Assembly: GCA_963847185.1 (NCBI GenBank)
Contig: CAWJYV010000009.1
Span: 20,647-44,646 of the forward strand
Direction of reading: 5' to 3'
From: an uncultured Methanosarcinaceae archaeon
GTDB lineage: Archaea > Halobacteriota > Methanosarcinia > Methanosarcinales > Methanosarcinaceae
DNA: 24,000 nt
The notes beneath the pieces are model-generated. The model saw only the letters and a list, made by a program, of their open reading frames with translations, was not told the DNA's origin and did not search any database. Each line of letters starts with the position of its first letter. The stretch's first letter is position 1. The position numbers and the translations under genes were made by a program. This document shows positions 3,163-22,522 of the stretch, one piece after another.

Positions 3163-4512
3163 TCACAGAGGCCCTGCATATTTACTCATAATATCTTCCA
3201 GCAAAGTAAGCCCTCCGCTGAACCCTGCGTAACTGTGCTCCAGCACAACACGGTCATATGAAGGGAATGAAACCGTCAGATGTATGGCATTGAATTCAGG
3301 ACCGGCTATATTACTTTCGAGAGAACTCGCAAGCAGGAATAAGAAATTCCTGTCTTTTAAATTCTGCCGAATACGATAGGCATCAACTTCATAAATTATC
3401 TCGGGCCATGCAGGAGTTTCAAGGCCAGTTGTCAGCTCCTCATTTATTAATTCACGGGCTTCTTCAGGTGGATTATCCGTTATCTGGACAATGTCAGGTA
3501 GATATCCCACCTCATTTGCAAGGTATTTTGTGATGCTTACAGCCGAATTACTGTCGGCAACAACTGCGAGATACGGATGTGGTCTGACGATCAAAAGTAT
3601 GTCGCCAATATATTCTGCAAATCTGTACGCCCGCCTTTCCTCTCTGGCAATCAGATCTTCAATAATATCTGCTGAAACATCTAACCTTTCTCCGACTACT
3701 CTCAGAAACTCTGAGGTTTGCTTGGGTCCGACCGGAACTCCAGGGAAGGAGATATAGGGAGTATCAAATTTTTCCTCAAGTTTTCTTGCAGTCTTGTGAC
3801 CAATCCAGCTTGAAAGAACAATATTATATTCGGCAGCAGGAATTTTTTTCAGGTTCTCAAGAGCATCAAACTCTCCTACGATCAGATTTGCCTTCAAGCC
3901 TATTTTTTCAAGAAGCGTTTTTATCTCTCTTGCTTCCCCTTTCCAGAATATATGCTGGGAAGGGACTAGACCGAATACATTTACCAGCCCTTTCTCTTTC
4001 GGAGCCTTTTCAAGGAGCTGATCGATTACAGCGTCGAAAAAGTATTCGTAGCCATCGTACGAGGTCCCTGCAAACCCTGAGGTATTCACATGTATGATCG
4101 GGACTTCAGGGTTCTTTTCTTTATACCCTCTGATAACCGACCCCACGTCATCTCCGATAAGTGAAGGGACACAGCCGGAGATCACTGCAAATAACTCTCC
4201 ATTTACAAGTTCTACCGTTGACTCAATAAGCTTTTCAAGTTTTTTCTCGCCGCCGAAAATCACATGCTCCTCGACTAAAGAGGAACAGGGTGTGCTTGTT
4301 CCTCCGTAAGGGCCTCCGGCATTCTGGCCGCCGCCGTAAAATTGGCCAAAAAGCTGCCCGATCCCACATCCTGCCCCGGAATGGAGGATAGGAACAACTC
4401 CAAATATGCCGACGGCAGTTGAATACGCCCCTCCGAGTGCGCAGGAGTAACGCGGCGCTTCGATCGCGCCTGAAATAAGATTGGCTGTCTGTAAAGATTC
4501 ATCAATTACCAT
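3163..4512 (-). CDS. nitrogenase component-1 beta-type subunit homolog (NifK/NifN-like)
   Basis: 449 aa. RYSCALGGAY, LHSGAGCGIG and VISGCVPSLIGDD align by eye with NifK C70, C95 and C153. NTSGFAGT aligns with the S188 region. AGGTG lies upstream of the ATG, 13 nt after the D-like stop. Confidence 0.8.
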   Translation of the reverse strand: MVIDESLQTANLISGAIEAPRYSCALGGAYSTAVGIFGVVPILHSGAGCGIGQLFGQFYGGGQNAGGPYGGTSTPCSSLVEEHVIFGGEKKLEKLIESTVELVNGELFAVISGCVPSLIGDDVGSVIRGYKEKNPEVPIIHVNTSGFAGTSYDGYEYFFDAVIDQLLEKAPKEKGLVNVFGLVPSQHIFWKGEAREIKTLLEKIGLKANLIVGEFDALENLKKIPAAEYNIVLSSWIGHKTARKLEEKFDTPYISFPGVPVGPKQTSEFLRVVGERLDVSADIIEDLIAREERRAYRFAEYIGDILLIVRPHPYLAVVADSNSAVSITKYLANEVGYLPDIVQITDNPPEEARELINEELTTGLETPAWPEIIYEVDAYRIRQNLKDRNFLFLLASSLESNIAGPEFNAIHLTVSFPSYDRVVLEHSYAGFSGGLTLLEDIMSKYAGPL

Positions 4513-4525
4513 GATTACACCTGAT

Positions 4526-6071
4526 TCAGTCCTCTGCTTGAAGATAATAAAGCGAATTAGGCTGTTTGTACCACCAGTCCTTGTATGTACTCTGGGTCTT
4601 TTCTTTCATAGTTCTCTGGTACGAATGACTTTTCAATGACTGTAAAAGGAAGTTTCCAAATGCAATCGCTCCCGTATAACCGCTCTGGGCACTCCAGGGA
4701 TGTGGATCTGACCTCAGGGCATGTACCCTTGTAACACCCTTGTCGCGCTTGAATGCACCTCCCTGGAACGGGCAGGTCATTGCAATATCGGGATCTCTCT
4801 GGTTTGTTATGTGGGTCTGTTCTGCAGCCTGGAAGGTATTTACCAGAATGTCAAAGTCCCCCATCTGGGTGATCAGTTTCTCAAGATCCCTGAGTATTAG
4901 GTTGTCAAAGTCCTGGCACATTGCGGCTGAAGATTTAAGGCCGAGTTCGTCAAAGTACGGGACCTGAGCCAGAAGCCTTCCCTGTCCAAGTGCGCCCAGC
5001 ACTTCTATCTTCTCTCCATTGCCTTTGAAATTTTCAAATTCACTTCTGATTGCTTTCAGCTTCGGAAGCCACTTTTCATGTTCCTCTTTGATAAGGGCTT
5101 CTACTTCCTTTTCTTTTCCAGTATGTCTTGCAATCTCCCTCAGCCATTCATCCGTATGTGCAACTCCCATCGGAGAGGGATATAGGAAATAGGGAACTCC
5201 ATATTCCTGTTCAAGCCCGCGGGCGAGATAGTCAGTATAAGTCGGGCACAGTGGTGCAGTAACTGCAGCTTCGGAAAGTTGCTCAAACTGCTCCACAGAT
5301 GCAAATTCGGGAATGAAGTTAACTCTTAGACCTACTTTTTCCAGCAGGCGTTTTATTTCCAGCCTATCCTGCCATGTATAGGAAAGCATACTTGCTACAT
5401 TTACGAGATCTTTCTGTTTCTTTTCCGGTTTTTTGACCAGGTACTTTCAGGACGGCGTGCCAGAAGGCATCATAGCCGGTCTGGACAAGCCTTGAGCGTG
5501 AGCCCTCACAATGGATAGGGACGATTGTTGCTTTTACCTGCGGCTGGTATTTTGCAACAACTCCTTCAATGTCCTCTCCGATTATTCCTGAGGTACAGGA
5601 TGTAAGTATGAAGATTGCTTTTGGATTGTACCGTTTCTCAGCCTCGAGGATTGCTGCGCCGAGTTTTTCTCCGGCACCGTAGACGACATCTTTTTCTCCT
5701 ATGTTTGTCGTAATCCAGTGAAGATCGTAATTGGCAGGGCGCCCAAGTTCAACAGGCACGTGCCTGTAGAGTTCACGGTATCCGAGAGCTGAAGACGAGC
5801 AGCCTACAGGTGCATGATATATAGCTACAGCATCACGGATTGTTCCGATCCTTACTGAAAGGTAGAAGTTCAGAACACAACCACTGGACTGCTGAAAATT
5901 CCTTCCTCTCTGCCTCAGGCAGCCTGTACGGGCTTCTTTTACAAGGTCACTTGCTTTTCCATACCAGACATTTATGCCGTTTGCCCTCTGTTCTCTGTTG
6001 GGACATGTGGCCCGTGATAGGTCGATTTTTTCTTCGATAAGTTCATTTTCAGTAAGTTCTGTTTCTGACAT
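4526..6071 (-). pseudogene. nitrogenase component-1 alpha-type subunit homolog (NifD-like), interrupted by a 1-nt frameshift near 5444-5448
   Basis: Track ORFs 5364..6326 and 4526..5389 are the N- and C-terminal halves of one NifD-like protein. The span of 1546 nt equals 3n+1. GGAG lies 9 nt upstream of ATG 6071 (MSETELTENELIEEK...). Joining at CTG AAA G TAC restores ...FWHAVLK/YLVKKPEKKQKDLVNVASMLSYTWQD... It could be a true pseudogene, a sequencing error or a recoding site. Confidence 0.75.
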
Positions 6072-6164
6072 CAATATTACTCCGTAAGATACCCGGTTTC
6101 CGTAATGAATTCGTCTCCATTTTATTCTGCTCCTGGCATCACTACGTCTAATTGAAATCAGTGG

Positions 6165-6232
6165 ATATATAAATCGGGAATTCAGCAAAAATGTGACCTT
6201 GTTTCTCATTATCCGAAATTTTGCGGCAAAAA
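6165..6232 (-). promoter_or_regulatory. nifD-like promoter: palindromic motif, 24 nt, second motif, 7 nt, TATA
   Basis: On the minus strand the order is TTTTTGCCGCAAAATT (6217-6232), 24 nt, ATTTTTGCTGAA (6181-6192), 7 nt, TTTATATAT (6165-6173). The same arrangement occurs at 12023-12090. Confidence 0.55.
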
Positions 6233-6470
6233 CCAATACCCTAACTTCCGTCTTTTTAGGCGCATATATTCTTTTCCGCATCTCTGAGAGGTCAGATGAT
6301 TGCTGTTTGGAAATTTTACCTTGCATCTGATGTGCTTAAGTTTAAGCGCATTAGTTGATATCAGGTGACATTTATGTGCTTAAAAATGCGGAACCAAGGC
6401 CAATATAGGAGAAATTCAAGAAAATTTACTAAAATTCATAAATCCCAGAAGAAGTTAGGGAGGAAATAAA

Positions 6471-6614: not shown

Positions 6615-6965
6615 TTATTCGAAGTTTTTTTCTTCCAGTATCTTTTGAATATCCCTTTTCAATTCAGGCAATCTTTCATTTGCAGTATTCCAGACAACAC
6701 TCAAATTTACACCAAAATAAGCGTGGATTATAACATCCCTGATTCCTGCCATTTTTCTCCAGGGAACGAATGGATATTTCTTTCTTACCTCTTCAGGAAT
6801 ATGTTTTGTTGCTTCCCCAATAATTTCAAGTGCATGGTTTACAGCAAAAATTGTTTTTTCATCGGAAACAAATTGATCGAAGTCCATTCCTTCAATAAAA
6901 TGTTCACAACTTTCAATAGTTTCAAGGATATCTTGCAGATAATTTTCGACATCACGCTCAATCAT
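6615..6965 (-). CDS. hepT: HepT-like (DUF86) ribonuclease toxin
   Basis: 116 aa with an Rx4HxY motif (IRDVIIHAYF). It overlaps the upstream nucleotidyltransferase gene by 4 nt. Confidence 0.85.
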   Translation of the reverse strand: MIERDVENYLQDILETIESCEHFIEGMDFDQFVSDEKTIFAVNHALEIIGEATKHIPEEVRKKYPFVPWRKMAGIRDVIIHAYFGVNLSVVWNTANERLPELKRDIQKILEEKNFE

Positions 6966-7294
6966 ACCTGCACGACCTCTTCAAGAATCCTTTTCCCAAT
7001 CCTCGGTTTTAACGCGCTTTTCATTACGAGATCCACTTCCAGGCCAAGTATTTCCGAAAGCTCCTGTTTGAGCCCGATGAATTCTAGGAGGTCAGGTTCT
7101 TTAGAGAATTCTACAAGAATATCAAGATCGCTTTCTTCTTTTTGTTCTCCGCGAACGTAAGAACCAAAAATTCCCAGATAGCTGACGTTATATTCCTGTG
7201 TAAGTTTTGGAAGATGCTGACTAATAATTTTCGAGAAATATGCTGCATCCTTTGCTTTTTTGTCACTTGACTTGGTGATGGTATTAACTGTCAT
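6962..7294 (-). CDS. mntA: MntA-type minimal nucleotidyltransferase antitoxin
   Basis: 110 aa with LGIFGSYVRGEQKEESDLDILVEF (the GSxxRGx5SDxDxxV motif). It forms a type VII toxin-antitoxin arrangement with HepT. Confidence 0.85.
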   Translation of the reverse strand: MTVNTITKSSDKKAKDAAYFSKIISQHLPKLTQEYNVSYLGIFGSYVRGEQKEESDLDILVEFSKEPDLLEFIGLKQELSEILGLEVDLVMKSALKPRIGKRILEEVVQV

Positions 7295-7501
7295 GCATCC
7301 TCATAGTCTTGAGTTTAGGTTATTACTCGTGAAATTAGTCCTGTAATATATTTTTGTGTTCAGTATTTAAAAGTAAGGCTTAATTTACCTCTGAATTTTA
7401 GTCATATAACTTGCTAATCCTCTTCTGTGATTATACAGGATTTCATAATTTCGAGCTCTTGATATCTGATATTACCTTATTTTGATCCATTCATGAAACG
7501 G

Positions 7502-7897
7502 CTATGTTATATAGTCGAATAATACATTTTCGAGTTTTCTCTCAAATCTTGGACTCATTTTGCGTAGAGGAGTTTTAAGCGGCTCATAGAATCTGCCAAA
7601 TATTTTATAATAATCATTGAAAATAGGTTGAAGTTCCGAACTTATTTTATTATAAGGAGTTTTAAATGGTTCATAGAATCTGCGAGTTGTTCTACAGTTT
7701 TCACTGAAATTAAGTCTATAAACACCTATTTTGCTGATAAATTCGATATTTTCTTCGCGGAAAAATCCAATCTGCCTGTAGCCTACTTTGCCGTCGTCAT
7801 CATTTATAGTGAATTCTTCGTCATATAGTGAATTTTCAATTTCAGATTTATTTTCAAAAAAATTAGGATCAAATGAAGGGCTATCATTATTAAACAA
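7502..7897 (-). CDS. hypothetical protein with an internal RFYEPxKTPxxKxS duplication
   Basis: 131-aa ORF with a TTG start and no family I recognise. It has an acidic N-terminal half and two copies of RFYEP(F/L)KTP(Y/L)(N/R)K(I/M)S. Confidence 0.4.
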   Translation of the reverse strand: MFNNDSPSFDPNFFENKSEIENSLYDEEFTINDDDGKVGYRQIGFFREENIEFISKIGVYRLNFSENCRTTRRFYEPFKTPYNKISSELQPIFNDYYKIFGRFYEPLKTPLRKMSPRFERKLENVLFDYIT

Positions 7898-8200
7898 TAT
7901 TATTAATGGATATTCTAAAGGAATTTTTCCATTCCCGACATCATTTTGAAGATTCTTTAACTGCCCTCTTAATTTTTTTTCTACTGCGTTCTTTATTTTA
8001 TATCCTCTGCTCCCTTTACCTCCTGGAAAACGTATCTGAGCTTCTCAGTTTGGATCCATATGGCTTTCGTAATCATAAAGCAATGTAGCTATTTCAATTA
8101 AGACTTTTTCTACACTACACTTATCTTCGATTAATAAATCCAAATTTGATTTATAATCTTCAACGTAACTTATTACACGTATTAACACCTATCTACTTAT

Positions 8201-8713
8201 ATGATGGGGAAAGAACGCATTCCAATTGATCAAAAATTAGTTCTTGATGAAATCAACGTTTTAATCAAACATGAAACCAATTCAAGAGTGCTTAAAAGGC
8301 TCTATTTTGTAAAATTTAGATTTTTAGGGGATTCAGTAGAAGAAGCCGCTACTAAAGTTGGAGTTACTAAGAAAACAGGATATTACTGGCAAGATGCCTG
8401 GAATAAAGGCGGCTATGCCGCCTTAATACCAAATTTTGGTGGGGGTAGAAAATCCAAGCTTACCGATGATCAAATAAAAGAGTTAAGAATCTTGCTGGAA
8501 AAAAAAGATCATTGGACTACAAGAGAAGCTTTGGAGTTAATAAAGGAAAAATATGGGGTAGAGTATTCACAGAAACAAGTAGGAGTTATACTGCATAGTT
8601 TTAACATGTATCATTCAAAACCATATACTCTTGACTACAGAAGACCTAAAAATGCTGAGGAAATTTTAAAAAAAGTTAATAGAAGCAATTCCAGCATATA
8701 TTGGTCCAGATGA
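8201..8713 (+). CDS. IS630-family transposase, N-terminal HTH part (orfA)
   Basis: 170 aa with HTH-like segments (VEEAATKVGVTKKTGYYWQDAWNKGG; WTTREALELIKEKYGVEYSQKQVGVIL), typical of IS630 N-terminal regions. Confidence 0.8.
   Translation: MMGKERIPIDQKLVLDEINVLIKHETNSRVLKRLYFVKFRFLGDSVEEAATKVGVTKKTGYYWQDAWNKGGYAALIPNFGGGRKSKLTDDQIKELRILLEKKDHWTTREALELIKEKYGVEYSQKQVGVILHSFNMYHSKPYTLDYRRPKNAEEILKKVNRSNSSIYWSR
8668..8675 (+). other. A7G slippery run at the orfA/orfB frame junction
   Basis: The sequence is TTA AAA AAA GTT in the orfA frame. A -1 slip gives ...EEILKKK-LIEAIPAYIGPDD..., a contiguous transposase of about 345 aa. Confidence 0.5.
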
Positions 8714-8732
8714 TCAATATCTTATAGGTTTT

Positions 8733-9239
8733 TTGGATGAATCCTCACCACAAACAAAAGCAAATACGCAACGATTATGGTCATTTAAAAAGCCTTTGAT
8801 AACAAAAAATACAGATTATATAAAAGCAAATGCGTTTGCATTCTATTCGATTAATGGTAGAAATCTCATCGATTTTATGGAAAGTTCAAAAGCAGAAAAT
8901 GTATGTGAATTCCTTGAGAAAATTGTGGAACAGAATTTAGGGAAAAGAATAATTCTTGTTCTGGATAATTCGAGGTCACATCATGCTGATAAAACGGTAA
9001 GGAAAGCAAGAGAATTAAATATAACACTTGTGTTTCTTCCTCCTTATTCACCAGATCTAAATCCTGTAGAATTTGTATGGAAAACGATTAAGAGAGAAGT
9101 ATCTGTTAGATTTATTCAATCAAAAGAACATTTAAAAAAGATTATCAAAAATGAATTTATGAAAGTGGAAAACTCATTATCATTTGCAAAGAAATGGATG
9201 GAAACATTCAATCCACAAATAAAAAGTGTAATTTGTTGA
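8733..9239 (+). CDS. IS630-family transposase, DDE catalytic part (orfB, -1 frame relative to orfA)
   Basis: FLDESSPQ..., ILVLDNSRSHH and PPYSPDLNPVEFVWKTIKRE match the DDE triad context of IS630. This frame is already open from about 8672 (KLIEAIPAYIGPDDQYLIGFLDES). Confidence 0.8.
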   Translation: MDESSPQTKANTQRLWSFKKPLITKNTDYIKANAFAFYSINGRNLIDFMESSKAENVCEFLEKIVEQNLGKRIILVLDNSRSHHADKTVRKARELNITLVFLPPYSPDLNPVEFVWKTIKREVSVRFIQSKEHLKKIIKNEFMKVENSLSFAKKWMETFNPQIKSVIC

Positions 9240-9339
9240 GTCAGGAACTATAGATTGAGATATGGGGTATTCCGGTGTTATTTCAAAATAAGGTGCTAGT
9301 TTAGCGGCTACTTCAATTTCTGCCAGTGTAGGTAAATCT

Positions 9340-9609
9340 TTATCGGGATTTAATAGATTCGTTTAACTTCCTAGTAGGTTTAGGATACTCTATCTGATAA
9401 CACATTATAGTTCTGAATAGACTTTCTAGGTAACATTGATACTGATACTCTGGGATGCAAAATGTATTTGCTATAATGCCTGGATTTTCTTGATTTAACC
9501 GAGCTTTCTTGATTATATTGTCGTAACCAATAGTATTACACAAGCAAGGAGCTCTTTTTAGATTTGACTCTAAATTTTTAATGTTGAATTCAATTTCAGT
9601 AGATGACAT
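9340..9609 (-). CDS. hypothetical protein, possibly the 5' part of a frameshifted gene
   Basis: 89-aa ORF with no recognisable family. A second frame, open 9362-9251, reads TNLLNPDKDLPTLAEIEVAAKLAPYFEITPEYPISQSI and runs into the IS630 end. Confidence 0.35.
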   Translation of the reverse strand: MSSTEIEFNIKNLESNLKRAPCLCNTIGYDNIIKKARLNQENPGIIANTFCIPEYQYQCYLESLFRTIMCYQIEYPKPTRKLNESIKSR

Positions 9610-9707
9610 TTATACAGACGTACCGAACGTCTACGTTTTCATGCTTTAAGGCAAATCTGCTCCAGTGGACTCGACGAGTCGAGAAACAAAAATACTTTTG
9701 CTCAAGT

Positions 9708-9989
9708 TCATCTTGATCCTTTCAAGGCAGAAATCCGTTCTTGAATTGATTTTTGATGTTCTTCTTCACTTAAGGAAGGATCCTTTAAAGAAACCCAGAT
9801 TTCGCAGGGGATTTGCGGGCAATCGCCGCAATTTAGATAACTTTTTTCCTTAACGCATTTATAAACAGGGCAAATATCAGCACCAATATACTGAGTCCAG
9901 TAAACTTTGCCTTCAAGTGCGTCACAACCGGCACAGTCATTATTCAGATGAGGACATCCGTCACAGTTTACTCCACATACACAGATCAT
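9708..9989 (-). CDS. cysteine-rich DUF3795-like protein
   Basis: 93 aa with 11 Cys in the pattern CVCGVNCDGCP...CAGC...CPVYKC...CGDCPQIPC, which I recognise as the DUF3795 layout. Confidence 0.65.
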   Translation of the reverse strand: MICVCGVNCDGCPHLNNDCAGCDALEGKVYWTQYIGADICPVYKCVKEKSYLNCGDCPQIPCEIWVSLKDPSLSEEEHQKSIQERISALKGSR

Positions 9990-10170: not shown

Positions 10171-10506
10171 TTACTTTTCACTACAGGACTGTTTCTCTGT
10201 ATTTCCACCGCAGCAAGATCCAGCTTCTCCTCCGCAGCCGCACTCACCACTATCCATATCCTTTCCTCTAAGTGCTGCACCGATCATTGCCCATGCACAG
10301 CCAACCCCACTCTGCACTTCAATTGCCTGAACCGGGCAATTCAAAGCACACGCTCCGCATTCCATACATGCAGACGGCTGTAAAAGTTCAACACGTTCTT
10401 TTCCTTCGGAAAAAACTCCATGTGGACAGACCTGTGTACAGCGCCTGCAGTTGATACATCTGTCAGGATAATACTTGAGTGTGTTCTCAAGATAAGAATT
10501 AAACAT
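10171..10506 (-). CDS. hgcB: HgcB, 2x[4Fe-4S] ferredoxin of the mercury-methylation pair
   Basis: CINCRRCTQVCP and CMECGACALNCP (two CX2CX2CX3CP motifs), conserved GVGC, and a C-terminal vicinal pair in GSCCGG. The ATG abuts the hgcA stop with 0 nt between them. Confidence 0.85.
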   Translation of the reverse strand: MFNSYLENTLKYYPDRCINCRRCTQVCPHGVFSEGKERVELLQPSACMECGACALNCPVQAIEVQSGVGCAWAMIGAALRGKDMDSGECGCGGEAGSCCGGNTEKQSCSEK

Positions 10507-11580
10507 TTAGATCCACCTCATTAATACGATTATTCCAAGCAGAATTGAGAGTATAATTCCAGAACCTGCCATAAGTGCCATAACAGGTGTGTATCTGAAA
10601 ATTTCTTTTTTAACGCCAGTCCTTGAAGTAAAAGTCGTACATCCAGTGAAGTTAAGGGCCAGGTATGCTGTCAAAGCTGGCATAATAAGAAGAAATGCAA
10701 GTGACATTGAGGCATTTTCCCAGAAGGACAATACTAAATTTGTCGTAAAAGAAAAAACTGCGAAAGGAATGGCAACGATCTCTCCAAGAATGAGCCCTTT
10801 TGTACTGAAGTCATGTGTAGGGATAAACGGAAGCAGAGCTGGGAAGAGTACAGTTCCCGCAAGAACTGCTGTGACTGCAGCCAGGGCTGCAAGAGAGCCT
10901 GCAAGGAAATAAAGAATAATGCTGGCAACGATTGTCGGCAATGCTACGTGAACAAATTCCACAGGGGTCAGTACCAGCCGATCTTTTAATGGGAATTGAA
11001 CTCTGCGCATCTCAGGTGTTGCTTTTCGCATTTTGAGGTATTCTGGAAGGTCGCTGGCACGAACAGGGCCATATTCCACCGTAAATCCAGACATTCGTTT
11101 AACTTCGTATGCAGATATTCCCGGAGCTGACAACTGGGGAAGGATGAGAGTGCGATGCTTGACAACACTGGCAAGGCCTGTAGATGCTATACGCCGCACA
11201 AGTTCGTCTGTTCCAAATGTACCCTTACCCGCAGCACACCAGACATTAATTCCCTTTGTGTCCAGAACAAGAATATAACAGTCATTACCCGCAAGTGCGG
11301 AGCGAACAGCGTCAAAGCTTAGCGTATAGTTTGCTGAAACGAAGACCATTGAATCAGGCGTCGGAATCCCAAGCCTGTAAAGACCGGGCTTTACAATATG
11401 CCCCATCCTGTTTACTCCCCAACTGGCAAGGAAATGATCAAGCCGATTGGCAAATGTGATTGTGCTTGTGGTCGTACTGATCTCAGATACCGGTATATTT
11501 TCAGTCAACCGATTTAATGGTTTTATCTCCAATCTCTGTGTGCATGAGCACGATGAATCAGCAGTTTTTTTATTTTCCAT
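10507..11580 (-). CDS. hgcA: HgcA, corrinoid protein of the mercury-methylation pair
   Basis: 357 aa. It carries the diagnostic cap-helix motif LVLDTKGINVWCAAGKGTFGTDELVRR, flanked by VSANYTLSFDAVR and ILPQLSAPGI. The C-terminal ~150 aa form about 4-5 hydrophobic helices. Confidence 0.9.
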   Translation of the reverse strand: MENKKTADSSCSCTQRLEIKPLNRLTENIPVSEISTTTSTITFANRLDHFLASWGVNRMGHIVKPGLYRLGIPTPDSMVFVSANYTLSFDAVRSALAGNDCYILVLDTKGINVWCAAGKGTFGTDELVRRIASTGLASVVKHRTLILPQLSAPGISAYEVKRMSGFTVEYGPVRASDLPEYLKMRKATPEMRRVQFPLKDRLVLTPVEFVHVALPTIVASIILYFLAGSLAALAAVTAVLAGTVLFPALLPFIPTHDFSTKGLILGEIVAIPFAVFSFTTNLVLSFWENASMSLAFLLIMPALTAYLALNFTGCTTFTSRTGVKKEIFRYTPVMALMAGSGIILSILLGIIVLMRWI

Positions 11581-11598
11581 GTGGTCCCAACTCTCTTT

Positions 11599-11901
11599 TT
11601 AATCCTGATTTTGCATCAAGGGGTCTAACACTCCTTTTACCATTCCGCTAAGAGCCTCGACCTTTATGAGAGCGAGGCAGCAAATACTACCGTCCTTTTC
11701 CCAGCTGATCAAAGCAAGTTTATTCCCGGTATTAATGCCAGCTTTCTCCCTTACGTCTTTTGGAAGTACCATCTGCCCTCTCTCATCCACACTGAGAACT
11801 GCCTCAACCTTACATCCTGAACCCTGATTACATCCACATGACAATCCATTAGAATTACAACATTCATCAATTATTTTCTTATTAGCCATTAGAATCCTCA
11901 T
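11599..11901 (-). CDS. cysteine-rich SpoVT/AbrB-domain protein, first gene of the hgcAB operon
   Basis: VDERGQMVLPKDVREKAGINTGNKLALI is an AbrB/SpoVT signature. The N-terminus is ECCNSNGLSCGCNQGSGC and there is an internal ICC. The stop lies 18 nt before the hgcA ATG. An alternative start at ATG 11889 is preceded by GAGGA. Confidence 0.75.
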   Translation of the reverse strand: MRILMANKKIIDECCNSNGLSCGCNQGSGCKVEAVLSVDERGQMVLPKDVREKAGINTGNKLALISWEKDGSICCLALIKVEALSGMVKGVLDPLMQNQD

Positions 11902-12122: not shown

Positions 12123-13031
12123 ATGGCAAAAGCACGAAACATCGCAATCTACGGAAAAGGAGGTATCGGAAAATCGACTACCTCATCAAATCTTTCAGCA
12201 GCTCTTTCGGATCTTGGACTTACAGTAATGCAGATTGGCTGTGATCCTAAGAGCGACTCTACAAATAACCTGAGGGGAGGAAAATCGATTCCTTCAGTTC
12301 TTGATGCTTTAAGGAGTGGGAAAAGAATTGAAACCAGCGACATTGTCTATGAGGGCTTCAATGGGATCCTCTGTGTGGAAGCGGGAGGACCGGAGCCAGG
12401 AGTGGGATGCGCTGGCAGAGGTATTATTACTGCAATTGAACTCCTTAGGCAAAAAAATGTCTTTGAGGAGTTCAAACCTGATGTTGTAATCTATGATGTC
12501 CTCGGAGATGTCGTCTGTGGAGGGTTTTCAATCCCTATCCGTGAAGGTGTTGCAGAACAGGTCTACACTGTCGCATCCTCGGATTTCATGGCAATATATG
12601 CAGCTAACAATCTCTTTAAGGGAATAAGGAAATATGCAAACAACGGCGGTGCGCTGTTCAGTGGCATAATTGCAAATTCAATGAACCAGCAGATTCAAAA
12701 AGAGATAATAAATGATTTTGCAAATCAGACAAAGACAACGATTGCAGGATATGTACCCCGTTCGCTTGACGTTACGAGAAGTGAACTCAGAGGGCAAACT
12801 GTGGTCGAACATGCACCTGACTCTGAGCAGGCTGAACTGTACAGAGAACTTGCAAGGGGCATTTTGCACAATGATAAGAAATACGTTCCTGCTCCGCTGG
12901 AGTCCGAAGAACTCAAAGTATGGGCTGAAAGCTGGTCAGATATACTCCTCAGGGAGCGTGAACAGGTACATACAGGAGAAGTGAAAAGAAGCAATGTGGA
13001 AGGAAGAACGCTGGTAAGCTCGGAAGCATGA
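12123..13031 (+). CDS. NifH-family Fe-protein homolog (nitrogenase-like reductase ATPase)
   Basis: [14 protein letters not shown] (P-loop), CDPKSDST, and the cluster ligands in GVGCAGRG and [11 protein letters not shown] 12123 with GGTGA upstream is preferred over the track's TTG 12090. The protein is 302 aa with an extended C-terminus. Confidence 0.9.
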
Positions 13032-14509: not shown

Positions 14510-15037
14510 AAGAACCGAGTACTTTAGCGTTTCAGGACTCTTCGTATTCTTCTCTAATTTTTCCCAGAGTTGTTGTCCTGTTTCCGTTCCTCTGCTGCCA
14601 AAAGATCAGTCGATGAACTTTTTTCCAACTCTATCAACAGCAATCCAGATCCAGCAATACTTTTTTGTTACCGATGTAAGTATGCATCTCATCGAGTTCA
14701 ACAATAGAGATCTCATTTTCGCTTTTTAGGTCCTCTAACTCCTGACCAAATTTCTTTATCCATTTTTGGACAGAAACATGACTTTCTCCCAAAAAACGCC
14801 CTATTTAGCGAAATCCTAATCCTTCAAGATAGAGTTGTAAAGCTGTCTTTTAACAGAAGGGGAGCTAGCAGTTGATTTTATCTCTACTGAATAGTTATAT
14901 CCACAAGAATGACATTTGTAGCGTTGACGTCCATCAACTATACCGTTCTTTTTATGATTGGAATTCTTACATCTTGGACAGTTCATACAGAAATATAATT
15001 TCTCATAAAAAAATAAATAACTATATTTAATTACCAA
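14510..15037 (-). mobile_element. decayed, 3'-truncated IS1-family transposase relic
   Basis: Zn-finger N-terminus MNCPRCKNSNHKKNGIVDGRQRYKCHSCGY (track ORF 14816..15037). Shifted frames then read LQLYLEGLGFR*IGRFLGESHVSVQKWIKKFGQELEDLKSENEISIVELDEMHTYIGNKK and KKYCWIWIAVDRVGKKFID*SFGSRGTETGQQLWEKL. I count at least 2 frameshifts and in-frame TAA and TGA stops. Confidence 0.65.
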
Positions 15038-21320: not shown

Positions 21321-21947
21321 ATGCCCTCCGAGTCTCAAAGGGACGAGGATGATTACGAGTCTCGATATATAGACAAGTACCTGAGCGAATATGCAAGTAT
21401 TTCGTCAATTGTACGCGAGGCGTTGCCTTTTGAACTTATTGCTACTGTGGGAGGAGTCTTTGCAGGAGTTATTTTTGCAGGGATGACAAAAGAACTTGAG
21501 ATGATTCCCGGACTGATTGTGATTTATCCCGGAGTGCTTGGGCTCAGGGGTAACATTTCCTCAACTCTTGGCTCAAGGCTTGGCAGTGCAATCCATATGG
21601 GCCTTATTACCGGATTCGACAGGCACAACCCGGAACTTACCAATAATATCTCAGGTTCTCTTATTCTTAGTTTCATAACGGCTATCCTGCTCGGATTTCT
21701 AGGGCATTTCATGACCCTTGCTTTCGGCTTTGAAAGTGCAGGAGCGTTTAAACTTATCCTTATCTGCGTAATTTCAGCGATGTCGTCTGCAGTAATCCTC
21801 TCTTTTGTTGCAGTCCTGCTCGCTATAGGGATGTTCAGATTTGGTTTTGATCCCGATAACGTTGTTACTCCCTCTATTGCCACAATTGGAGACATTGTTT
21901 CCATGCTTATGCTTTTTCTCTCGGCAAAACTGGTGGTGATGTTTTGA
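21321..21947 (+). CDS. MgtE-type divalent-cation transporter membrane-domain protein (half-size, copy 1)
   Basis: 208 aa, polytopic. PGLIVIYPGVLGLRGNISSTLGSRLGSAIHMG and DPDNVVTPSIATIGDIVS match the MgtE/SLC41 membrane-domain pattern. Confidence 0.75.
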   Translation: MPSESQRDEDDYESRYIDKYLSEYASISSIVREALPFELIATVGGVFAGVIFAGMTKELEMIPGLIVIYPGVLGLRGNISSTLGSRLGSAIHMGLITGFDRHNPELTNNISGSLILSFITAILLGFLGHFMTLAFGFESAGAFKLILICVISAMSSAVILSFVAVLLAIGMFRFGFDPDNVVTPSIATIGDIVSMLMLFLSAKLVVMF

Positions 21948-22522
21948 AAAAGACTGGAAGTCAGACTTCATACTATACAGTTAATGGGATTGTACGGCGT
22001 GGACTTCCTGTACTTTTGATCACCTGTGTAATGGGGATTTTTGTTGGACAGATTCTGAACACAAGAGAAAGTAGCCTTATTTCCATGCCTGCAATACTGA
22101 TCCTTATTCCTTCACTTATCAAGATTGGAGGAGATACCGGAAGTATGCTTGGCGCAAGACTTTCTTCGGCTTTCCATATGGGGCTTGTAGACAACTTTCG
22201 AAGGAACCCGGTTGTAAACAACAGTGTTATTGCGGCTTCAATCGTGGGTTTCGTTTCATCGATTTCTGTCAGCATCCTGGTCTTTCTGGCAAGCAAAATT
22301 CTGGGATTCGGGATGCCTTTCCTGATCCTTTTGAAAATCAGTCTTATAGCTGTTATTATAGAACTTTCCTTTGTATACTCTGCAACAATTGCGATTTCCT
22401 TTGCTTCTCACCGCTTCGGGATAGACCCCGATGATACTGTTATCCCTTTAATAGCGAGCCTTGGAGACCTTGTAGGAGTTAGTGGAATTCTCGTAGCTCT
22501 ACATCTACTGCATATCTTATAA
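21944..22522 (+). CDS. MgtE-type divalent-cation transporter membrane-domain protein (half-size, copy 2)
   Basis: 192 aa. It is a paralog of the preceding gene (IPSLIKIGGDTGSMLGARLSSAFHMG; DPDDTVIPLIASLGDLVG), with a 4-nt start/stop overlap. Confidence 0.75.
   Translation: MKKTGSQTSYYTVNGIVRRGLPVLLITCVMGIFVGQILNTRESSLISMPAILILIPSLIKIGGDTGSMLGARLSSAFHMGLVDNFRRNPVVNNSVIAASIVGFVSSISVSILVFLASKILGFGMPFLILLKISLIAVIIELSFVYSATIAISFASHRFGIDPDDTVIPLIASLGDLVGVSGILVALHLLHIL

Follow-up and report, generated by a model that had tools for sequence, protein, structure and literature searches.

What might a pair of nitrogenase-like genes be doing in a methanogen, in a stretch of DNA that holds no nitrogen-fixation cluster? 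The question is raised by two adjacent genes at positions 3163-6071 of a 24,000-nucleotide stretch (called the window here, at its full length) from an uncultured Methanosarcinaceae archaeon (assembly GCA_963847185.1, contig CAWJYV010000009.1, positions 20,647 to 44,646). The answer favored here, with a probability of about 0.7, is that they encode the D and K subunits of a Group IV nitrogenase-like (NFL) reductase, predicted to carry a P-type and an [Fe8S9C]-like cluster and most likely to act by cleaving carbon-sulfur (C-S) bonds. The genes lie side by side on the minus strand, D upstream and K downstream; the codons listed with them were checked against the sequence.

4526..6071, minus strand: D-like subunit gene; 514 aa with one extra base removed; two PF00148 (Oxidored_nitro) halves, 106.4 and 101.6 bits against a cutoff of 28.6
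5444, minus strand: one-base insertion after codon K209 and before Y210, G on this strand and C on the plus strand; +1 frameshift splitting D
5879-5877, 5801-5799, 5597-5595 and 5248-5246, minus strand: D ligand-candidate codons C65, C91, C159 and C275
4774-4772, 4723-4721 and 4702-4700, minus strand: D codons C433, H450 and H457, in the region of the far ligand
3163..4512, minus strand: K-like subunit gene; 449 aa, one intact open reading frame (ORF); PF00148 E 1.4e-70, 238.7 bits
4443-4441, 4368-4366 and 4173-4171, minus strand: K codons C24, C49 and C114, P-cluster cysteines

Seven of nitrogenase's eight metal-cluster ligands are kept in this pair. In D, residues C65, C91, C159 and C275 align with C62, C88, C154 and C275 of Azotobacter vinelandii NifD (AvNifD) and with C66, C91, C158 and C270 of MarD, from the methylthio-alkane reductase (MAR) of Rhodospirillum rubrum. 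This holds in HMMER searches against the PDB and in a superfamily MAFFT alignment of 98 sequences (95 full-length superfamily representatives plus P0001, MarD and AvNifD); hhalign against a MarD-clade profile returns the same four MarD pairings. P0001 is a 514-aa ortholog, used as the reference that stands in for the window D protein in alignments and in the AF2 model. In K, residues C24, C49 and C114 align with C32, C56 and C121 of MarK, and cysteines are present at all six P-cluster positions (NifD 62/88/154 and NifK 70/95/153; HMMER, hhalign and MAFFT). Conservation is complete: among orthologs drawn from 77 genome loci, the four D cysteines are invariant in 83 of 83 D proteins and the three K cysteines in 78 of 78 K proteins, and C275 occupies the NifD 275/MarD 270 column in every alignment. 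D contains nine cysteines; seven are invariant or nearly so, and four of those seven fall in known ligand columns. As a matter of sequence comparison, this part of the observation is solid and far above chance.

A preliminary description of the locus, aligned by hand to Azotobacter sequences, had proposed exactly these D and K cysteine equivalences, and the profile and multiple alignments uphold them. All eight motifs it quoted can be found in the translations where it placed them; what it presented as one D-like protein is two ORFs, with a frameshift that went unmentioned. The A. vinelandii NifD sequence in the superfamily alignment is 100% identical to PDB entry u430, and the numbering of 9fmg_A agrees with the published one at every residue checked (C66, C91, C73/Q74, H194/W195, H375, R428/H429; PMC12552129). 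Global hhalign of the family profile against the single AvNifD sequence mis-paired C65 with NifD Cys45 at the N-terminus; for this reason the cysteine columns were taken from local HMMER and the superfamily MAFFT alignment.

Other invariant positions are peculiar to the family. D C23 (codon 6005-6003), in an N-terminal TCPNREQR motif, is Val in MarD; C23, R74, R442, R448, R453 and D455 are invariant without a MarD or NifD counterpart, and an invariant Arg/Asp cluster surrounds H450.

For both subunits, the best sequence matches in the PDB are those of R. rubrum MAR (9FMG, 9D9U). D matches MarD (9fmg_A) with E 1.8e-73 as a single sequence and 1.8e-81 with a 35-sequence profile; K matches MarK (9d9u_C) over its full length with E 1.7e-84 and 37.7% identity. 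The AF2 model of P0001 (pLDDT 81, pTM 0.87) likewise finds 9fmg_A as its best fold match (TM 0.82/0.90, rmsd 2.9 A, 32% identity), with NifD next (TM ~0.70/0.75). A PDB search with the D C-terminal domain alone (residues 362-514) gave chance matches only (E >= 1). MarDK (9FMG) has been found experimentally to hold a P-cluster and an [Fe8S9C] cluster, ligated by the homologous cysteines and by His429 (PMC12552129). The suggestion, also made at the outset, that the window enzyme carries complex P- and M/L-type clusters is thus supported from three sides: invariance of the homologous cysteines, a nearest structure that holds both types, and the fold match.

The relatives that reduce other substrates fit poorly. 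NCBIfam scores lie far under their cutoffs for TIGR01282 (nifD, 135.5 against 653.6), TIGR01862 (152.5 against 486) and CfbD (48.8 against 268), and the BchN, BchB and BchZ models score the window proteins weakly. The tetrapyrrole reductases CfbD, BchNB and BchYZ, and the isethionate reductase IsrDK, were set aside as identities, as the window pair has the full cysteine set and a Cys275-type ligand. Retention of the Cys88 equivalent only is the pattern given for IsrD (PMC13474568); sequences of that kind form a distant clade in the superfamily alignment and tree.

Within Group IV the pair is distinct from MAR. Identity to the Mar proteins is 34% for D and 38% for K, against at least 73% inside the Mar clade; a neighbor-joining (NJ) tree, a rough distance tree without support values, groups the window family with P0241-P0243; P0244 comes out as its sister, and the RH-motif (Mar) clade branches elsewhere. 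The Mar-invariant residues Q74, H194, W195, F199 and H375 are replaced by R74, L195, V196, Y200 and D387, each invariant or nearly so in the window family; V196 and Y200 also stand where NifD has Gln191 and His195. The enzyme is an uncharacterised Group IV member, probably an organosulfur C-S reductase. Its clade is widespread in methanogens of many orders and is found in Geobacteraceae and Bacillota as well, with D identities of 65-98%; cultured hosts are Methanosarcina hadiensis, Methanospirillum lacunae, Methanoculleus palmolei, Geotalea toluenoxydans and Sporomusa aerivorans. Some single methanogen or Bacillota contigs (L025, L027, L037, L040, L060) carry two or three D/K pairs within 20 kb; their D copies are 28-79% identical to window D, some being Mar-type (RH motif) and some of an Ala433/His457 type described below.

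The eighth ligand, on the far end of the cluster, is less simple. The preliminary description had placed the equivalent of NifD His442 at H457 (DPH457PW). In an ungapped hhalign H457 does fall on His442, with W459 on W444 and Y465 on Y450, at zero aligner confidence; across the 83 orthologs the position reads D26/H22/L11/R8/N7, and a residue that is His in only 22 of them is no conserved ligand here. Conservation among orthologs had been named as a check on this equivalence, and it tells against it. Within the same 40 residues there are two invariant positions, C433 (LTC433PFQGG), present in 83 of 83 D orthologs, and H450 (TRxH450ALRGD). In the superfamily alignment C433 falls in the MarD H429 column. 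Of the 53 sequences there with all four D-subunit cysteines, 19 have His in this column; Cys occurs in it only in the clade of the window. The sister representative P0244 reads LVLA-HPGG there, against IAMT-CPFQGG in the family.

Structure of the loops is consistent with this placement. MAR binds the far end of its cluster off the nitrogenase loop, through His429, which immediately follows strand beta13 on loop I (PMC12552129). Almost every Group IV system has kept Cys270, Arg428 and His429, and mutating His450 on the nitrogenase-type loop of MarD is without consequence (PMC13474568). The spacing between the PD motif and the Gly at the start of beta14 (G-[IV]-[PT]) is 17 residues in the window family, as in MarD, against 16 in NifD, and no insertion in loop I relative to MarD is therefore required. 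Counted from the PD motif, C433 is at D+5, while MarD R428 is at D+5 and H429 at D+6. The five additional residues of the window family are in loop II (Gly to GY.G, 20 against 15), H450 among them, two residues before the expected His442 spot as counted from the beta14 Gly. At the position of MarD His429 (with Arg428), then, the window protein has C433, or variable residue 443 under the clade-profile hhalign; it has His under no alignment.

A paralogous subclade offers a comparison. With a 51%-identical Methanotrichaceae paralog as query, 17 clusters were recovered, the named members belonging to Geobacter/Geotalea and Methanoperedenaceae. All 17 read LQAPFKGG...TIH[FWY]LRG[DH]xH; that is, Ala433, H450 and His457 each occur in 17/17, whereas in the same alignment His457 is present in only 4 of 32 sequences with C433. 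The simplest reading suggested by these sequences is that the far ligand is C433 in the family of the window and a nitrogenase-like His457 in the paralogs; H450 would either have a role common to both clades or be the ligand in both. As the complementary 433/457 pattern reflects one evolutionary split, it is suggestive only. The whole proposal (an [Fe8S9C]-type cluster held by C275 and C433, a far ligand moved to a loop-II His in the Ala433/His457 sister subclade, and a new organosulfur-cleaving reaction in methanogens) is put forward as tentative, and somewhat more apt to fail in some part than to hold throughout. In the nitrogenases and MAR homologs compared to date a Cys/His pair holds the cluster, and the step of ligand migration was left unresolved by ancestral reconstruction in the 2025 MAR structure paper (PMC12552129). 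No description of the Cys433/His450 pattern with the His457 switch in paralogs was found in the literature searched, within which a Cys for His at the MAR ligand column, and the reciprocal paralog pattern, appear undescribed.

An electron donor and a set of recurrent neighbors bear on the likely chemistry.

12123..13031, plus strand: nifH-like ATP-dependent reductase (Fe protein); PF00142 E 1.7e-100; P-loop GKGGIGKS and both [4Fe-4S] Cys motifs intact

The product of this gene is the probable partner of D/K. It scores 351 bits against a cutoff of 350 for the NCBIfam 'nitrogenase reductase-like protein' model, and 387 against 394 for nifH. The remark in the preliminary description that the context is non-nif stands insofar as no nifEN, nifB or nifV was found in the 24-kb window; this cognate nifH-like gene does lie 6 kb away. 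Across the 77 loci, NifH-like (H) homologs accompany the pair in 49, adjacent to D or K in many, and the usual operon is H-D-K or D-K-H. The other neighbors are an NMT1-type ABC binding protein (25 loci), an ABC ATPase (22) and a permease (19), a Cys/Met-metabolism PLP enzyme (19), a PALP protein of cysteine-synthase type (16), and NifX-like (12), hexapeptide transferase (9) and ThiS (8) proteins. A 'tantalizing association with sulfur metabolism' has been recorded for Group IV (PMC13474568). It is this sulfur-related neighborhood, together with the ABC importer, that favors, as the reaction, reductive cleavage of a C-S bond in an organosulfur compound brought in from outside. The window also encodes, 2 kb from the nifH-like gene, a flavodoxin-like FMN reductase (PF03358/PF02525; 15083-15781, minus strand), and the same PF03358/PF02525 pair is encoded inside a Geotalea NFL gene cluster (L080, 14689-15282); by this analogy it may serve as an electron donor.

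A mechanism can be proposed. The NifH-like dimer would hydrolyse ATP and reduce a P-type [Fe8S7] cluster, which D C65, C91 and C159 and K C24, C49 and C114 would hold at the D/K interface. From there electrons would reach an [Fe8S9C]-like cluster of L/M type buried in D, with C275 at its near end and most likely C433, in the MarD His429 column, at its far end; invariant H450 would be an alternative anchor or a second-shell residue. The reaction would most likely be reductive C-S cleavage of the imported organosulfur compound, serving sulfur assimilation. Supply of the cofactor needs no nif cluster, because methanogens make [Fe8S9C] for other enzymes: Methanosarcina makes such clusters for core enzymes regardless of nif genes, and methanogen users include the methyl-coenzyme M reductase (MCR) activation complex and, in Methanosarcina mazei, Mtr (bioRxiv 10.64898/2026.07.03.736320; PMC13474568).

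Several observations weigh against this account. The D gene is frameshifted in the window. Genes for nifB-like, NifX-like and sulfur-assimilation proteins were not found in the 24-kb window. What the analysis establishes for the clade is homology, fold, ligand conservation and gene neighborhood; its cluster identity, far ligand, substrate and reaction are inferred. Both the clade-profile hhalign and a family-heavy MAFFT insert nine residues (CPFQGGAFK) and pair R442 with MarD R428, and C433 is therefore moved off the ligand column. H450 is more widely conserved than C433, being kept in the Ala433 subclade too, and could be the true far ligand. The AF2 model is weak at residues 431-450 (pLDDT 57-60).

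How serious is the break in D? As it stands, the gene is divided between ORFs 5364-6071 and 4526-5389, which overlap and are read in different frames; the upstream one was listed as 5364-6326, and the true start, MSETEL, is at 6071. The G at 5444 is the sole indel in the window copy of D in a DNA alignment with nine relatives (85-93% nucleotide identity). It has no counterpart in those nine or in 514-aa orthologs of up to 98% aa identity, and it lies outside any run of G (CTGAAA-G-TACCTG). Read through the junction, FWHAVLK is followed by YLVKKPEKKQKDLVNVASMLSYTWQD, which matches 514-aa orthologs up to 98% identical exactly; the reconstructed protein is 97% identical to P0001. Against the relatives, dN/dS is 0.03-0.05 for the repaired D and 0.06-0.09 for K, equal to the values among the relatives themselves; the extra base must thus have arisen very recently or be a sequencing error. 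An old pseudogene is ruled out on the same ground. Closely related D proteins also turn up on two contigs binned as Planctomycetota (L009, 93% identical to the reconstructed Methanosarcina D) and Acidobacteriota (L013, 97%), the latter with two single-base indels of its own; both contigs look mis-binned.

The surroundings of the pair are disturbed as well, as the remaining features of the window make plain.

10171..11901, minus strand: hgcC-hgcA-hgcB, mercury methylation; NCBIfam HgcA 444.8 against 275, HgcB 118.6 against 99, HgcC 121.1 against 70
6615..9989: segment replacing the genes for a CCG protein and a 310-aa protein (Pfam; gene order of closest relatives)
6615-7294, minus strand: MNT/HepT toxin-antitoxin pair (nucleotidyltransferase and RNase, stop/start overlap), immediately upstream of D
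7502-7897, minus strand: 131-aa ORF without a family match; 76-nt imperfect tandem duplication, 7553-7628/7640-7715, 71% identity
8201-9239, plus strand: split IS630-type transposase (HTH_32 and DDE_3); ORFs 8201-8713 and 8733-9239 in different frames
9708-9989: DUF3795 (Pfam)
14634-15037, minus strand: IS1/IS1595-type transposase fragments; two short ORFs, a zinc-ribbon (CPRCKN...CHSCGYNY) and peptide ELDEMHTYIGNKK
21321-22522, plus strand: two MgtE-domain ORFs of 208 and 192 aa, with ATGA overlap

The window is from a Methanosarcina; its closest relative is 92.6% identical in DNA sequence, and M. hadiensis 91%. In M. hadiensis and a JGI contig the order is H, hgcC hgcA (hgcB), CCG protein, 310-aa protein, D, K. 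In the window neither the CCG nor the 310-aa protein has a tblastn match. CCG-domain (HdrB-like) and 310-aa proteins precede D/K in the closest Methanosarcina relatives (L004, 7864-9730; L001, 503-2318; the JGI contig); the 310-aa protein has no family match, the two genes are present in only 5 of the 77 genome loci, and their products may form a disulfide-reducing accessory module. No convincing terminal inverted repeats were found for the IS630-type element. In the 131-aa ORF the duplicated stretch is translated as a peptide repeat, RFYEPFKTPYNKIS / RFYEPLKTPLRKMS. Mobile-element debris is plentiful around the nifH-like gene. The two MgtE ORFs are probably a genuine two-gene pair rather than a frameshift. 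As to hgc, the NVWCAAGK cap-helix motif is at HgcA residue 112 and the C-terminus of HgcB is Cys-rich; given the complete hgcC-hgcA-hgcB cluster, the Methanosarcina of the window is predicted to methylate mercury. The cluster, which lies between H and D/K, diverges from the nifH-like gene and has a common intergenic region of 220 bp with it. In a Methanoculleus metagenome-assembled genome (MAG), hgcBAC diverges from H-D-K, a layout related to that of the window type by one inversion.

These observations allow the other explanations of the locus to be weighed. One supposes that the pair is a true, if divergent, N2-reducing nitrogenase, as proposed for Nfa of Endomicrobium, with His457 as a His442-type ligand of a FeMo-co-like cofactor. 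The six P-cluster cysteines, the Cys275 equivalent and the ungapped match of H457, W459 and Y465 would suit it, as would V73, eight residues past the first Cys like NifD Val70. Identity to AvNifD is only 23%, and the replacements of Gln191 and His195 are of the invariant type; with these two residues absent and the nitrogenase models far below their cutoffs, N2 reduction is unlikely. The variable position 457, the missing nif genes, a neighborhood in relatives that speaks of sulfur assimilation and not nitrogen, and the inability of MAR, the nearest structure, to fix N2 (PMC12552129) make this explanation very improbable. The same sulfur neighborhood could be taken to mean that the pair is an ordinary MarDK (Group IV-C) ortholog acting on dimethyl sulfide (DMS), methylthioethanol and ethyl methyl sulfide: its best PDB matches by a wide margin are MarD and MarK, the subunit set and the seven cysteines are the same, and an O-acetylhomoserine-sulfhydrylase-type PLP enzyme nearby could use methanethiol. 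That would not account for the low identity and separate NJ clade, or for replacement of ligand His429 and the whole pocket (H194/W195/F199/H375). Moreover, true Mar-type RH-motif paralogs sit beside the window family in the same loci (L042, L052, L060), and the frequent ABC importer suggests a non-volatile substrate. Orthology with MarDK in this sense is improbable, if less so than nitrogen fixation. Still more remote is the idea that D/K works with HgcAB, for example in methyl-mercury or methyl-thiol chemistry. It takes its appeal from the position of hgcCAB between H and D/K in the window, M. hadiensis and the JGI contig, and from the one-inversion relation to the Methanoculleus layout. Neighborhood counts largely refute a general functional link: none of 80 metagenomic hgcA loci (54-80% identity), about 25 of them with a flank of 5 kb or more on a side, has H, D or K within the sequence covered; hgc is absent from the majority of the 77 D/K loci and, within Methanosarcina, from L005 and L011; adjacency is confined to Methanosarcina and one Methanoculleus MAG. 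No connection was found in the literature searched.

The explanation that comes nearest to the favored one in weight concerns this genome alone: the locus might be a decaying, functionless pseudogene remnant, its ligands conserved because inactivation was recent. This is a serious contender, given a little under even odds. The frameshift at 5444 speaks for it, as do the loss of the CCG and 310-aa genes, with an IS630 transposase, a toxin-antitoxin pair and small ORFs in their place, the separation of H from D/K by 6 kb, and the further IS fragments at 14634-15037. Yet the lesion is single, K and H are intact, dN/dS in both subunits is indistinguishable from that of functional relatives, and a single-base insertion may be an assembly error. 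Decay would in any case concern the window copy only; the family is clearly under selection. With a one-base frameshift in D and an operon broken up by mobile elements, the D/K enzyme may be inactive in this genome, unless the extra base is a sequencing error.

What the locus could contribute is best seen against the open problems of the field. That nitrogenase-type clusters serve other chemistry in nitrogenase-like enzymes was newly established by the 2025 MAR structures (PMC12552129); such clusters have been predicted for most Group IV clades. A 2026 review (PMC13474568) names two main open problems: what the remaining Group IV clades do, and which residue was the second cluster ligand in the common ancestor. 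The clade of the window bears on both. Through it, a new C-S-cleaving activity and the evolution of cluster ligation could be put to the test. If the tentative far-ligand proposal is true, the clade pair would be a natural experiment on migration of that ligand between loop I (MAR type) and loop II (nitrogenase type), and organosulfur cleavage in methanogens could release small hydrocarbons independently of MCR. The message for the window itself is more modest: it encodes what appear to be cluster-bearing NFL subunits, but with a D gene that is broken or mis-sequenced.

Comparison with known systems places the pair among these enzymes. A. vinelandii NifDK (1M1N) resembles it in fold and in the equivalents of Cys62/88/154/275 and NifK Cys70/95/153, and the window protein happens to have a His at the ungapped His442 position. 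It differs in its distant sequence, in the lack of family-wide conservation of H457, in the replacement of Gln191/His195 and in the nifEN, nifV and nifB genes that the window is without. In NifEN the six-Cys P-cluster set is incomplete and Asn takes the place of His442. From NifEN, the MCR activation complex and Mtr it is evident that methanogens make L-type clusters and use them for purposes other than nitrogen fixation; the latter two are unlike the window D/K in having unrelated folds. In the MCR activation complex, one L-type cluster is held by two Cys (PMC13474568).

The R. rubrum MarHDK system (9FMG/9D9U) is the best match in sequence and fold. Like the window system it combines a NifH-like reductase with a D/K heterotetramer, six P-cluster cysteines and a Cys270/Cys275-type ligand; the N-terminal REQR motif is common to window D and MarD, and relatives of the window share the sulfur-assimilation neighborhood. 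It differs at the far ligand, where MarD His429 is replaced by Cys433/Pro434, and in loop II, which is five residues longer in the window protein and contains the invariant H450-x-L-R-G-D; the window D/K has no adjacent marB, and the hosts of its clade are mostly archaeal, often with an ABC importer. The paralogous LQAPFKGG NFL subclade (P0391-P0407; Geobacter/Geotalea, Methanoperedenaceae, Methanotrichaceae), one member of which is annotated as a 'VnfE-related oxidoreductase subunit', is 50-52% identical to the window family. The two groups have in common the P-cluster cysteines, C275, the invariant H450 motif and the loop lengths. The subclade has a longer C-terminus, and C188 is Thr in its bacterial members; at positions 433 and 457 its Ala and His are the reverse of the pattern in the window family.

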